Positions 46,793-64,000 of a DNA stretch of 64,000 bases are shown piece by piece. Both the position numbers and the translations under genes were made by a program. The stretch lies in contig CAKPSH010000005.1 in assembly GCA_934183325.1 (NCBI GenBank), positions 7,749 to 71,748 of the forward strand. Reading direction: 5' to 3'. Under the pieces are notes generated by a model. That model did not search any database and was not told the DNA's origin. It saw only the letters and a program-made list of their open reading frames with translations. The stretch is from an uncultured Clostridia bacterium (GTDB lineage Bacteria; Bacillota; Clostridia; TANB77; CAG-508). The stretch's first letter is position 1; each line of letters starts with the position of its first letter.

Positions 46793-49700
46793 TTAAATTT
46801 TATTCTTTAATACAAACTTCTTTATTAGTACAATTCCTAAGGCAATAATAATTATTGTTATTAATATAATTGTTATCATAGTATAGCTTCTATCTTCACC
46901 TGTTGGATCGTTTATTGTAATTGTTTCTGAACTATGTTTTGCTCTTATATGTGCATCATCATTATTCATATCTTGAATTCTACTTACTGTATTGTTTATT
47001 TTTATGATTCTTACACTATTTTTATATGTTTTTGTATCTGTCAAATCATTTTCTGTTGAAATAACTTTAGATAAAGTTATTTTTGATGATGATTCTTCTC
47101 CATGTTTTAAGTTCTTCATTAATGGATTATTTCCTGTTGCAACAACAATTGTATTAACATTATACACTTCACTACTATCCATATCTTTTATTGCTGTTGG
47201 TTCTTTAGTCTCATAGCCTGCTTTTTGTTTATAATAGTTACTTGCAAATTCGTCCTGTGTTTCTTGATGATATATTTCCCAATCATCATTTATTGTACTT
47301 CCTGTATAATCAACTTGAGAAAATGTTAAATTGCTTGGTACAAAATCTGCAACCATTGCAGGTGATGTTGTTGTCTCTACATCATCATATCTATCATAAA
47401 TTTTTATATTTGTTGTTCCAGAATTCTCAATTTTGCTTATTTTATTACCATTTTCATCATTTTCGAATTCTTCACAATTATATACTCTCATACTGTTATT
47501 ATCTCTGTCTTTTACTTCTATCTTGTTCAATAAATTATTATATGCTGTATAATTTTTCTCATAGAATACTGAACTCTTATAATCTTCTTTATATAATCCT
47601 ATACCAATGACATCGTTATTATTGTTTTTATAATATCTTATGGCATCATAATCGCTTTCATTTTTTACAGTTATTTTATATGTTATTTCTAATGTAGCCC
47701 CATTTATTAACTCGTTTGTCATTGATATATTTATATTTGTTCCTTTTTCTACTTGTACTACTCCAGGAACTTTCTGTGTTCTTATTTCTTCTGGTGTGGC
47801 TTCAAATTGTACTGTTCCATTTTGTAATATCAATTTTATCTTTGCAACCTCTTTTGTAATATTTAATTTTGTTTTAGTTCTTGGTGTTAGAGCAAAGTCG
47901 ATATTATCAATTGAATATGATGGATCTTGTTCTCCAAAGGTATCTAATTTAGCTTTTTCAGGATAGAATTCCATCATTGATGTATATGCATACATCATAT
48001 ATTCAGTTGGATTTTTTATTGTATCAACTGCATCTGAATATTTATATCCATTAGCGAATTTATTGTTAATTTCAATTCTTCTGTTTGCTTCATCATATGC
48101 ATCTGAATATCTTGTATCTGTCTCATTTACATACCAGAATCTTGTATTATCACCTGTATTTGTGTTTGGATTTGCTTTTGCAGATTGATAGAATTCTCCA
48201 TTGTAAGGATATTGATATTCTCCTCTGTTCATTGTATCTTTTTGATTTTCACTATTTAAAGTTTTATCCCCATATACAAATCTTACAACATAATTTCCAG
48301 GCATAAATCCAGTAAATGTATAATTTCCATTATCATCTGTTGTAGTTGTTGCCCTTACCATTTGTTTAGTTAATTTTTGTCCGTTTTCCTCTACATCTTT
48401 TAATTCAACTAATTCTACAGTCAATCCTTTTATTTTCTTTGAATTGTCATTTATTGTTGGAGCATTATTATCATAATAATAATTTGCAAAATTCTCTGTT
48501 TCCCATACACTTCCGCTTAGTTTTCTCGTATCATTTGCGTTGCTAAATATCAATGTTGGTGCCTTATCCCAATCTTTTTCACTTGGTGTCGTTTCTAGTA
48601 ATTGCATTGCATTTAAGTTTCCAGGTATTGAATATGTATCCATTACACCCGCAGCTCTATATTGTTTTCCATCATATACATATATATATGCATTAGTTCC
48701 TGCAAATTTAGTTTGTTTTGTTGTACTATCTTGATCAATTCTATAATATGTACTAAAGCCATTTACTTCTGTAATTGTTTCAATATTTATTTTATTGTTT
48801 TGATCTTTACCCAAAGTGTTTTTGAATATAGTTTGTGCAGAATTATCTGTTCCGTGCCATGTTCCAAATGAACAATTATATTTTATATCTTTAGATGAAT
48901 TTTCACCCATTCTATATGTAATATAAATTGATATACTATCATTCGTTTCTAGCATTACACCACTATTTCCAAGATTTATATATAAATCTTGATAATCATG
49001 TCCTGTAGCAAGTCCTGCCGCAATTGCAAGATAATCCTTTGTTTCAGATGTTCTTCCATATCTACTATTAGCACTTGTTGTTGCTTCTAAAATTGGAGTA
49101 ATTTTATTTTTAAATGCACTCATTCCTACTATTTGTTTTCCTGCAGATGTTGTATAACCATCACTGTATGATAAATACATTCTATCCATATATGTTACCA
49201 ATTCATTTACTGTTGTTGGTATATTTGACACATTTTTTACAACAATTTTATATGTTGCATATACTTGTATCTTTGCAGCATCTTCTTCATATGTTGCTGT
49301 TCCATTTCTTAATCTTGCTGAATCTGTGTTGTAATTATAATCATTTGGTGATATCACTTGATTATAAGATAATAATGATGCTAATGTCTTTGTTAAATAA
49401 TCATCTGCTGCAATTTCAAGCTCTTTATCTGATAATGTTCCATATTTATATTCCTCATCTTTTCCGTTCATAGATACAACTGTCTTATATAAATCCTCTT
49501 TTACATTTAATGTTGTAGTTGCTCTTGGAATTAATCCCATATTTATATTTAATTGTCCATTATATACATACCAATATCCACCAGTTGTTTGTTTTGGAGC
49601 ATTTGCAACTGCTTTTTTAGCTACACGCTTTCCATTTGCATCTTTAGTATTTGTTGTTAAAATTATCTTGTCATATACTGGGTAATACTCTTGTTTTACA

Positions 49701-62416: not shown

Positions 62417-64000
62417 TTACTTGCCTTTTATAATTCTTTTCTTTATTTCATAAATCCCAATGATAATTACATTTAAAACAAATACTGCTATTAAAATATA
62501 TACTGCCTCTCCTGTTTTTACTCCAATTATTATTTCTGCATTTCCCATATCATCTTCATTTTGTACTTTATTACCTGGTACTGAATCATAATCATCTTTT
62601 CCTTCTTTGTTATATGTTTCATATATTTCTGCCATATTATTAGTTATACCAGTATTTTTTTCTGACATTGTTTTAGTTAAAATTAACTTTACCTCAGCTT
62701 TCTCTCCTGATTTTAACTCTGTGTTCTTTAAAGTTGAATTATATAGATTTCCATCAGTTCCTAAATACCAGCCTGCATTTAATTCTGAATTAAATTTTAA
62801 ATCTGTCTCCTTTAAATAATCTACAATTTTAGATACATTTCCAGATATAGCTCCTTCGTTTGTAACTGTAATGTTATATTCTATTGCTACGGTCGCTCCG
62901 TCAATTTCTTTTGATTTTATTTCTATTTTTTCTAATTTAGAATTATCATATTCTTTTGTTGTTGTTTTTTCTTTTGTTTTTACAGTAATTTTAGATATAG
63001 ATTTTGATAAACTTAAGTCAAATTTTTCATTTATTATTAATCCTAGGTTTATATTATATACATTTTTGTTTAAGTCAATTGTATCTGTTGCTCCACAATT
63101 CATATCTGTTCCATTTATATTTAATTTTAAATACATTGCTTTGTTTGTATTAGTTCCATCTTTTTGATATTTTGTAATATCGTATATTTTTTCGTCATAC
63201 ATAAATGCTACAACATATTTTCCTTCAAACACATTACTAAATGTATATTCACCATTATCTCCCGTTGTTTGCGTTGATATAATATTACCTGATTCATTTA
63301 ATAAAATTACTTGTATATTTGAAATTAGTTTTTCATCACTTGATTTTTCTCCGTCCGAATTATTATCTATCCATGCTATTCCAGAAATACTATAACTATT
63401 TTTTTCATTACCTTTATATGAATACTTTTTTTCATTAACCTTATGGGTTATTGTAGAGCTAGTTAGATCTTGATAATCTGTATGTACTTTAAAATAATGA
63501 CTTATAATCTTACTTTCATTATACTTTATATAATTTGCTTTTCCACTTACAATTAACTTTAATTTTTCACCTGCTTTAATATCGAATACTTCTTCGTTTT
63601 CATTTGTACCATTTGATATGTAATAAAAATTTCCTTCTTCATCTTCATATCTAATACTTCCTAATATTATTCCTTCTGAACAATAATCATTAATTTGTAC
63701 ATCATAAGCATTATATTTACTATAGTTCTCTATTGTATAAATATATTGAATTTCATCTCCTTCTGTAATTTCACCAGTTTTATTCATGCTTTCATGTGTA
63801 ATTTTCAATTTAGCTTTTCCAACAACAAAACTTACTGTATTACTTATTGCATTTTTTTCTACGCTATCATCCAAATATTTTCCAGTTATATTTAGAGAAT
63901 TTTCATTTTCTTCGCCTTCTATTTCATTAATTTCACAAACTAATATAATTTCTTTATTATTGTTCATTTTATCTATTTTCCAAGTAATATTTTGTCCATC
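62417..64000 (-). CDS. Giant surface protein B' (C-terminal >520 aa; gene continues beyond window end), paralog of B
   Basis: Aligns to B residues ~1130-1664 (…EYIYTIENYSKYNAY…, SGIAWIDNNSDGEKSSDE…GEYTFSNVFEGKYVVAFMYD…). C-terminal AEIIIGVKTGEAVYILIAVFVLNVIIIGIYEIKKR. The track start at 63967 is an internal Met. Confidence 0.75.
   Translation of the reverse strand, partial: DGQNITWKIDKMNNNKEIILVCEINEIEGEENENSLNITGKYLDDSVEKNAISNTVSFVVGKAKLKITHESMNKTGEITEGDEIQYIYTIENYSKYNAYDVQINDYCSEGIILGSIRYEDEEGNFYYISNGTNENEEVFDIKAGEKLKLIVSGKANYIKYNESKIISHYFKVHTDYQDLTSSTITHKVNEKKYSYKGNEKNSYSISGIAWIDNNSDGEKSSDEKLISNIQVILLNESGNIISTQTTGDNGEYTFSNVFEGKYVVAFMYDEKIYDITKYQKDGTNTNKAMYLKLNINGTDMNCGATDTIDLNKNVYNINLGLIINEKFDLSLSKSISKITVKTKEKTTTKEYDNSKLEKIEIKSKEIDGATVAIEYNITVTNEGAISGNVSKIVDYLKETDLKFNSELNAGWYLGTDGNLYNSTLKNTELKSGEKAEVKLILTKTMSEKNTGITNNMAEIYETYNKEGKDDYDSVPGNKVQNEDDMGNAEIIIGVKTGEAVYILIAVFVLNVIIIGIYEIKKRIIKGK

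Follow-up and report, generated by a model that had tools for sequence, protein, structure and literature searches.

We describe here a gene cluster at one end of a 64,000-nucleotide stretch of DNA (the window) from an uncultured Clostridia bacterium, the last 17 kb of which are filled by four giant genes that lie co-oriented on the minus strand in the order B', A', B and A. The whole locus, including the part of B' that runs past the window edge, occupies about 20 kb, or ~10 kb for each B-A pair, and feature coordinates are collected in Table 1. Open reading frame (ORF) calls and pairwise identities bore out the initial annotation of this DNA in its view of four giant genes arranged as two A/B pairs with intra-pair gaps of 13 and 16 nucleotides (nt), and each gap was found to carry an AGGAGG sequence. 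The terminator which that annotation had placed between the pairs was recovered as a hairpin and T-run on the coding strand. A promoter-like TTGAAA-17-TATAAT sequence stands just downstream of this hairpin, again between the two pairs, and a GGGAGG ribosome-binding site precedes the B start codon. For the upstream side of the locus, a near-identical contig (99.5–99.9% identity to the window across A' and B') served as a stand-in; the 527 residues of B' that are visible in the window are identical to the C-terminus of the 1757-residue protein P0009 on that contig.

The natural reading of this layout is that of two bicistronic units in which translation is coupled. B'-A' and B-A would then be two tandem operons, each encoding one pair of fibrillar proteins. 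The short gap and strong ribosome-binding site suggest that B and A are made together, and that they probably stand next to each other on the cell as a functional pair. All the proteins have a signal-peptide-like N-terminus as well as hydrophobic and basic segments at the C-terminus, in keeping with the signal peptide and C-terminal hydrophobic anchor first attributed to them. By this route the proteins would be exported through the N-terminal signal peptide and held at the surface by the C-terminus.

Protein B is predicted to be a rod of roughly a dozen immunoglobulin (Ig)-like beta-sandwich domains of the Gram-positive adhesin type. An AlphaFold2 model of its N-terminal 865 residues, based on 60 homologues, had a mean predicted local distance difference test score (pLDDT) of 89.6. 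Foldseek ranked the Ig-like stalk of PrgB first among the matches of this model, with integrin legs and macroglobulin domains next, and the rod domains resemble those of Gram-positive adhesins and pilins, including BcpA, RrgB and CppA. Further along the protein, B residues 1087–1252 hold matches to DUF11 (PF01345, 26.5 bits against a cut-off of 24.6) and to TIGR01451 (49.2 bits against 24); B' also matches PF01345, at 27.9 bits. DUF11, since renamed CLIPPER, is a stalk domain of the CnaA-like type that contains an isopeptide bond between Lys and Asn (bioRxiv 10.1101/2025.04.25.650565). SdrD_B (PF17210) was found in all four proteins at 48.9–57.6 bits, against a cut-off of 29.7. The last, membrane-proximal domain of B is linked to the DUF11 region of the same protein by hhalign (96.4%), and contains the invariant residues K1471, D1532 and N1593, whose order would correspond to that of the CLIPPER isopeptide triad, K715, D748 and N806 (bioRxiv 10.1101/2025.04.25.650565). 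We detected no enzymatic or lectin-like head on B by hidden Markov model (HMM) searches, AlphaFold2 or Foldseek.

In A and A', SdrD_B alone reached detection with Pfam and NCBIfam, and there was no direct DUF11/CLIPPER match. The initial annotation had assigned both DUF11 and SdrD_B domains to both families; the SdrD_B assignment thus holds for all four proteins, while the DUF11 assignment holds by these models only for B and B'. Residues 441–770 of A gave a weak Pfam match to CarbopepD_reg_2. In BLASTP comparisons, A and B had only the SdrD_B segment in common. Yet the last domain of A (residues 1312–1645) and the last domain of B (residues 1455–1636) were homologous by hhalign (99.0%, E 2e-18), so that A and B share a membrane-proximal module. 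The tie of A to DUF11-type domains is visible solely through such profile-profile comparison, by way of the B C-terminal domain. The A copy of the module has its own invariant residues, K1327, D1496 and N1605, again apparently in the order of the CLIPPER triad.

The part of A that would lie farthest from the cell is a head which evolves rapidly. C64, Q173 and W177 are among the residues that never vary in an alignment of 19 A-family heads (mean identity 20%), and Q402 hardly varies; when 35 heads (12% mean identity) were aligned, C64, Q173 and W177 were the only columns conserved at 90% or more. Many homologues carry Cys motifs such as LWCVE, IYCIE, VYCIQ and YFCIE, which fit the textbook [YFL]CΦζ pattern. 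The T-Q-x-x-Φ-W motif is also present, with K or V usually found in place of its leading T. In class II thioester domains, a Cys is followed by Q-x-x-Φ-W, a beta-sandwich, and then the bond-forming Gln (PMC6194298). The conserved Cys, Q-x-A-Φ-W and late Gln of the A heads occur in that same order, and on this ground we read the head as a class II-like thioester domain, a reading toward which we lean. If so, the head at the far end of A would form a covalent link between the cell and an amine on its target, which could be of host, mucus, dietary or microbial origin, and we infer covalent adhesion by A from this arrangement of residues.

Several observations weigh against this reading. At the Cys, A itself reads YYCGKK and A' reads NHCMNP, both of which are looser fits to the textbook pattern. 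A check against thioester-domain models had been proposed with the first description of the locus, and neither PF08341 nor TIGR03934 matched A or A' even at E 10, although the conserved motif set is present in A; among the 35 homologous heads, the sole PF08341 match was that of locus L036 (E 0.54, 11.1 bits). A head profile compared with the sequences of the PDB found no solved thioester domain, and an AlphaFold2 model of the A head from 5 sequences reached a pLDDT of only 30. A phmmer search with the most canonical head likewise gave no support for a thioester domain. It may therefore be asked whether the Cys, Gln and Trp instead reflect a disulfide, metal binding or some other Cys-dependent role, in a head that binds its target non-covalently. 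The want of HMM, PDB-profile or fold evidence speaks for such a head, as does the distance between Cys64 and Gln402, which at 338 residues exceeds the 171–204 residues of solved class II domains. However, in 35 divergent heads conservation is confined to the columns of the Cys, the Q and the W, in thioester-domain order, and a Gln late in the domain is retained among the 19 aligned heads (its context is MQPLI in A and YQNM in relatives, and the alignment is gappy around it). Also, the heads have no conserved His or Asp, as a Cys peptidase or transglutaminase would need, and no second conserved Cys that could form a disulfide. We consider a non-thioester head possible but doubtful.

Single-sequence searches were of limited use for this region. 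In phmmer searches against 1.84 billion representative sequences, the A head gave one match, an A'-like protein, which indicates that the head evolves too fast for searches of this kind. In a word-indexed homologue search, A gave 4 matches and missed A' itself, and the A head gave none; since low-complexity, AT-rich composition saturates the candidate list in such a search, these counts do not show that the proteins are rare.

In contrast to the head of A, B was readily traced in other genomes, with more than 200 full-length homologues, all of 1600–1850 residues. None of these, including 8 held by NCBI, is given a name by any source. We scanned one genome per species with a 12-sequence B alignment as the query. 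This gave 36 loci, each of them in a metagenome-assembled genome (MAG) of an uncultured gut Clostridia bacterium, with sample origins that include mouse, rabbit, Hadza and wild-mouse gut; one locus lies in a circular genome of 1.8 Mb. In every locus that extends beyond B, the next ORF is a giant one of 1.3–3.2 thousand residues, often overlapping B, and phmmer identified it as an A homologue. One distant A homologue had a readable context, and there a fragmented B gene lies just upstream. The proposal that A and B form a conserved pairing is thus upheld, and the contrary outcome, in which A or B would stand alone in relatives, is not what we observed: an A homologue follows B wherever the related locus extends far enough. 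By these comparisons, the B-A pair is a hallmark, apparently inherited vertically, of one lineage of gut Clostridia that are uncultured, low in GC and spore-forming.

These data bear on whether B and A act jointly, or are independent adhesins that share an operon and have each their own ligand. For independence, one may point out that A and B each have a complete signal peptide and anchor. Also, a B-family profile aligned at positions 1100–1436 with structures of the N2-N3-B1 region of SdrD (E 9e-26), that is, with the ligand-binding N2-N3 domains plus B1, and the SdrD-matching profile positions up to ~1340 fall in the B segment from residue 901 to 1340, which is the most diverged between the paralogues, as would be expected of a part that binds a ligand. 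Yet the B-A order, with reading frames that abut or overlap, is kept in dozens of species, at identities of no more than 30%, and in several lineages both genes of the pair have been duplicated together. Order and spacing this strict are rare for independent adhesins, and we regard independence as the less probable account, though one that merits some credence. Co-transcription, likely translational coupling and the shared membrane-proximal module are all consistent with joint action, in which A and B might touch, for example within the heteromeric fibre that the initial annotation suggested.

Tandem B-A-B-A arrangements were also present in loci L012 and L034, and locus L036 reads B-A-B. In two further loci, the giant ORF that follows A (1520–1541 residues; L018:20331-24953 and L022:16751-21310) is not a B homologue, and the third giant genes of these 2 loci are 79% identical to each other. 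In other Clostridia MAGs, ORFs of 4170–4300 residues (L039:369-13268 and L040:1-12510) match only residues 421–850 of B, at 26% identity, which indicates that the N-terminal sandwich domains of B occur in other giant proteins too.

Within the window, identity amounts to 50% between A and A' (~1690 alignment columns) and to 49% between B and B' (524 residues of the visible part). At the DNA level, the cassettes match each other at a spacing of ~10.26 kb with 70–82% identity, far above chance. A second species has the same B'-A'-B-A layout at 50–65% identity, and each of its genes is closest to its positional counterpart (B-B 60%, B'-B' 60%, A-A 65% and A'-A' 53%), from which it follows that the duplication is older than the species split. 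A recent duplication confined to one strain, which had been named as an outcome that would count against the initial proposal, is ruled out by the two-cassette layout and cassette orthology of that second species. The pair would thus have been duplicated before the last species split, with divergence greatest in the regions that probably determine specificity. Indeed, the cassettes have diverged most in the A head (17–33% identity between A and A', as compared with 52–67% in the stalk) and in the central region of B.

Divergence of the two cassettes appears even within the window, but the far end of B behaves differently once the complete B' is considered. On the near-identical contig, the DNA of B matches that of B' at 100% identity from nt ~300 to 1200 (0.9 kb), and in a strain from a Hadza sample the identical tract extends from nt 300 to 2400 (2.1 kb); the second species has no identical B/B' tract. 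Judged from the alignments, these tracts represent gene conversion between cassettes, a process that keeps the far end of B (the 5' third of the gene) uniform between B and B'. In the same Hadza strain (contig L041:10001-20007), B is 98% identical to that of the window. The B of its first cassette differs, with 72% rather than 59% identity to B, and two ORFs, of 298 and 1342 residues, make up a split A'. We take these last 2 features to mean that the locus is diversifying among strains, and such strain-level variation fits exposed surface genes.

On the whole, we think it probable that the locus encodes a co-expressed pair of giant fibrillar surface proteins, of which B is a conserved rod and A is a stalked and probably covalent adhesin. 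The suggestion that the architecture fits adhesins or fibrillar surface structures is thereby supported, both by domain content and by the model of the B rod.

The mode of attachment to the cell surface is less conventional. A tripartite cell-wall sorting-signal architecture is present, consisting of a motif, a hydrophobic segment and a basic tail. All B homologues whose C-terminus is intact have [STGA][IVLP]xTG directly before the helix, followed by a KKK-type tail (KKK or KKR); family motifs include SIKTG, TVKTG, GPKTG, VPKTG and AVQTG. In A homologues, xxPTG, LPPFG or variants such as APAGL are followed by a few polar residues, the helix and KK. We conclude that A and B are probably held at the cell surface by the C-terminus, in a manner that would resemble sorting. 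Against this stand the absence of canonical LPXTG, and scores with TIGR01167 that fall short of its cut-off of 15.9 bits (14.1 for A and 15.2 for the A homologue P0004, with no match for A', B or B'). No sortase was found by Pfam among 40 other window ORFs scanned, including those of the 47 kb downstream, and the 10 kb that precede B' on the near-identical contig likewise contain no gene for a sortase, signal peptidase or pilus, so that the expectation of sortase or assembly genes just upstream was not borne out. In related contigs, the 10 kb upstream of the first B also contained no sortase, and a crude TLxTC pattern for the sortase active site had no match across all loci.

The same observations speak against a sortase-polymerised pilus, in which A would be the tip adhesin and B the shaft. 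It is true that B domains resemble the pilins BcpA, RrgB and CppA, that some pilus tips, such as Cpa, carry thioester domains (PMC6194298), and that the C-terminal motifs of A and B look like sorting signals. But neither the YPKN pilin motif (searched as YPK) nor an E-box was found in the sequences of A, A', B and B', their size is three to five times that of pilins, and a sortase is wanting in all the regions listed above. We have rejected the pilus, which is highly improbable and the weakest of the alternatives considered.

A more elaborate form of the paired-adhesin reading may also be envisaged. A and B could be an obligate two-component adhesin, peculiar to an as yet uncultured gut Clostridia lineage, with A bearing a third, HMM-invisible class of thioester domain, and with the A head and the B centre matched to each other by mutual contact. 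Perhaps the A thioester captures B covalently, giving a sortase-independent fibre, with surface attachment by an unrecognised xxxTG sorting route. This combination is speculative, and we rate it as unlikely.

By comparison with known systems, the locus belongs to the TIE and fibrillar-adhesin kind and is not a new category of system. A resembles the TIE adhesins (BaTIE, SaTIE, EfmTIE86, CpTIE and SfbI) in its Cys and Q-x-x-Φ-W head (PMC6194298, PMC4450167), in the putative beta-sandwich that, as in class II, would follow Q-x-x-Φ-W and return to a Gln, and in having a predicted isopeptide-type Ig-like stalk and a segment like a sorting signal at the C-terminus. However, A is ~3 times longer than BaTIE (for which the full ORF has roughly 600 residues), thioester-domain HMMs do not see its head, its Cys-Gln spacing of ~340 residues lies outside the range of solved class II domains, its stalk contains SdrD_B and large CLIPPER-like domains, and its motif before the helix is xxPTG rather than LPXTG. 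Unlike TIE proteins, A is always encoded directly after a conserved partner gene.

B resembles the fibrillar adhesins with CLIPPER (DUF11) stalks, which are also long, secreted proteins with tandem CnaA-like Ig domains, and which are probably stabilised by isopeptide bonds and project a functional region from the surface (bioRxiv 10.1101/2025.04.25.650565; PMC9210967). In B, however, no more than one or two domains attain the Pfam threshold, no family is assigned to the N-terminal 870 residues, and the far end is the most conserved part, with the most variable part being central. The Staphylococcus aureus MSCRAMM SdrD shares SdrD_B with B, in addition to the N2-N3-B1 alignment given above, but B has no Ser-Asp repeats and no LPXTG, and its SdrD-matching region lies near the C-terminus and not at the tip. 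The MSCRAMM models NF000535 and NF012181 scored 40–43 bits, against cut-offs of 1700 and 2500. Likeness of the B rod to the Ig-like stalk of Enterococcus faecalis PrgB is at the level of single domains (~10% identity, low TM-score), and PrgB, unlike B, is plasmid-borne and LPXTG-anchored. In Clostridioides difficile, SrtB substrates, with (S/P)PXTG, and CbpA, with NVQTG, have a TG-ending pentapeptide before a hydrophobic segment and a basic tail, as in B; SrtB did not cleave NVQTG in vitro (PMC4155245). Most B-family motifs, in contrast to those of the SrtB substrates, have no proline, and no sortase gene was found near the locus. What is new here is the strictly conserved partner gene, the shared anchor module and the HMM-invisible head, along with the non-canonical sorting motifs and the conversion between cassettes.

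The lineage concerned has been seen solely in gut metagenomes, from humans (Hadza), mice and rabbits, and its one complete relative has a genome of 1.8 Mb; the expenditure of ~20 kb marks the locus as central to gut life. Should the A head be a working thioester domain, covalent attachment chemistry would extend to abundant commensal Clostridia, and there would be a divergent thioester class that current domain models miss, such that surveys of thioester adhesins would undercount. The strict B-then-A pairing offers a concrete hypothesis on cooperating fibrillar proteins. The conversion tracts and strain-level cassette replacement show how surface genes diversify, and also why such loci break short-read assemblies.

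Table 1. Features of the B'-A'-B-A locus and its surroundings. Positions are those of the window, except where a contig is named
Feature	Position	Strand	Description
A gene	46793-51832	-	1679 aa; ORF call
B gene	51849-56843	-	1664 aa; ORF call
A' gene	57061-62403	-	1780 aa; ORF call; 50% identical to A
B' gene, 3' part	62417-64000	-	527 aa visible; frame open to base 64000
B', visible features	62417-64000	-	SdrD_B, DUF11/CLIPPER, GVKTG + membrane helix + KKR tail
B'-A' junction	62404-62416	-	13 nt; AGGAGG ribosome-binding site just before ATG
B-A junction	51833-51848	-	16 nt; AAGGAGG ribosome-binding site just before ATG
Hairpin after A'	57030-57056	-	12 pairs, 5 G-C, then T-run; likely intrinsic terminator
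Promoter-like site before B	56885-56940	-	TTGAAA-17-TATAAT at 56913-56885; 10-bp phased A-tracts precede
Palindromic hairpin	46743-46772	.	Directly after A stop codon
B, residues 36-900	54144-56738	-	About seven predicted beta-sandwich domains, all-beta; no Pfam match
B, putative gene-conversion tract	55493-56693	-	B nt ~150-1350; 97-100% identical to B' of near-identical contig; corresponding B' segment falls past window edge
B, residues 901-1340	52824-54143	-	Most diverged B/B' region; 37-38% aa identity
B, SdrD_B domain	52554-52814	-	Residues 1344-1430
B, membrane-proximal CLIPPER-like domain	51954-52481	-	Residues 1455-1630
B, sorting-signal-like segment	51852-51953	-	AVKTG + membrane helix + KKK; T and G invariant in family
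A head	50513-51748	-	Residues 29-440; putative thioester domain with beta-sandwich insert
A head, Cys64	51641-51643	-	Motif residue
A head, Q173-Q-A-I-W177	51302-51316	-	Motif residues
A head, Gln402	50627-50629	-	Motif residue
A, first SdrD_B-like domain	49523-50512	-	Residues 441-770; starts GYVWND; ~200-aa insertion; putative, from sequence pattern
A, central domain	48533-49522	-	Residues 771-1100; first part similar to B C-terminal CLIPPER-like domain (hhalign 97.4%)
A, second SdrD_B domain	48245-48478	-	Residues 1119-1196
A, membrane-proximal domain	46913-47899	-	Residues 1312-1640
A, sorting-signal-like segment	46796-46912	-	NDPTGEDRSY + membrane helix + KKFVLKNKI
A', signal peptide and variable head	60769-62403	-	Residues 1-545
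A', Cys99	62107-62109	-	Putative thioester-motif position
A', Q225-N-A-V-W229	61717-61731	-	Putative thioester-motif position
A', SdrD_B domain	58519-58701	-	Residues 1235-1295
A', sorting-signal-like segment	57064-57183	-	TDPTGENRSY + membrane helix + KKFILK
Ribosomal/secretion cluster			3' of A hairpin; rpmG, secE, nusG, rplK, rplA, rplJ, rplL in turn
Split mreB	L003:3842-4844; L004:2407-3451; L041:3747-4791		Called as two ORFs

The remainder of the window consists of housekeeping genes, and the host, which has a GC content of ~26%, is a spore-former with SASP, sleB and ypeB genes. On the near-identical contig, the 10 kb upstream of B' contains three small ORFs, minC, the PBP2 gene, mreD, mreC, mreB and radC, and, beyond radC, a DUF4321 gene, mecA, ypeB and sleB. 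The mreBCD-PBP2-minC block and the three small ORFs adjoin the cassette in most loci that have upstream DNA, and rpmG-secE was seen on the opposite flank in the window and its near-identical contig. On the ground of this conserved position, between mreBCD-minC and rpmG-secE, we rejected a mobile-element origin. The proximity of the locus to genes of cell shape (mreBCD, PBP2 and minC), in an organism that forms spores, raises the question of whether the proteins are structural components of the envelope or the spore surface (such as a surface layer or appendages) and not adhesins, and, for an adhesin, B varies unusually little in length and sequence. Yet SdrD_B, CLIPPER, the adhesin- and pilin-like sandwiches and the thioester-like head constitute the domain set of fibrillar adhesins, the variable regions, the gene conversion and the replacement of cassettes among strains are in keeping with surface proteins that are exposed and diversifying, and the mreBCD synteny may be incidental. 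A structural role of this kind is quite improbable to our minds, and the surface adhesin pair remains the explanation that we prefer.

A number of minor observations were made on the surroundings of the locus. The three small ORFs between minC and the first B (45, 116 and 106 residues, with no family; L003:8800-9649) are present in ~30 other loci, and their direction varies by genome, toward B in some and away from it in others. In three independent contigs, mreB was called as two ORFs, of 52–71 and 206–279 residues; the recurrence of this split argues against random assembly error. Upstream of B, four A-tracts phased at 10 bp occur just before the -10 box (window ~56885-56940), and upstream of B' there are, likewise just before the -10 box, four copies of AAATGGC with the same 10-bp phasing (L003:9885-9935). 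These phased promoter repeats may be bent-DNA or UP-element-like features, or a site for a regulator. Rfam searches found no riboswitch or other RNA family upstream of B or B', and no cyclic di-GMP riboswitch near the B or A genes. In C. difficile, cyclic di-GMP is reported to control sortase-substrate adhesins (PMC4591827). A response regulator with a GGDEF domain is encoded in the window at 22172-23098, on the minus strand.

Two structured RNAs were identified elsewhere in the window, both on the minus strand. A ribosomal protein L10 leader (RF00557, 49.6 bits) at 44090-44209, upstream of rplJ, is as expected for that operon. A full-length ornate, large, extremophilic (OLE) RNA is present at 41176-41737 (RF01071, 294.8 bits), and just downstream of it lies a 180-residue ORF (40594-41136) which has no Pfam match and which might encode an OLE-associated protein.

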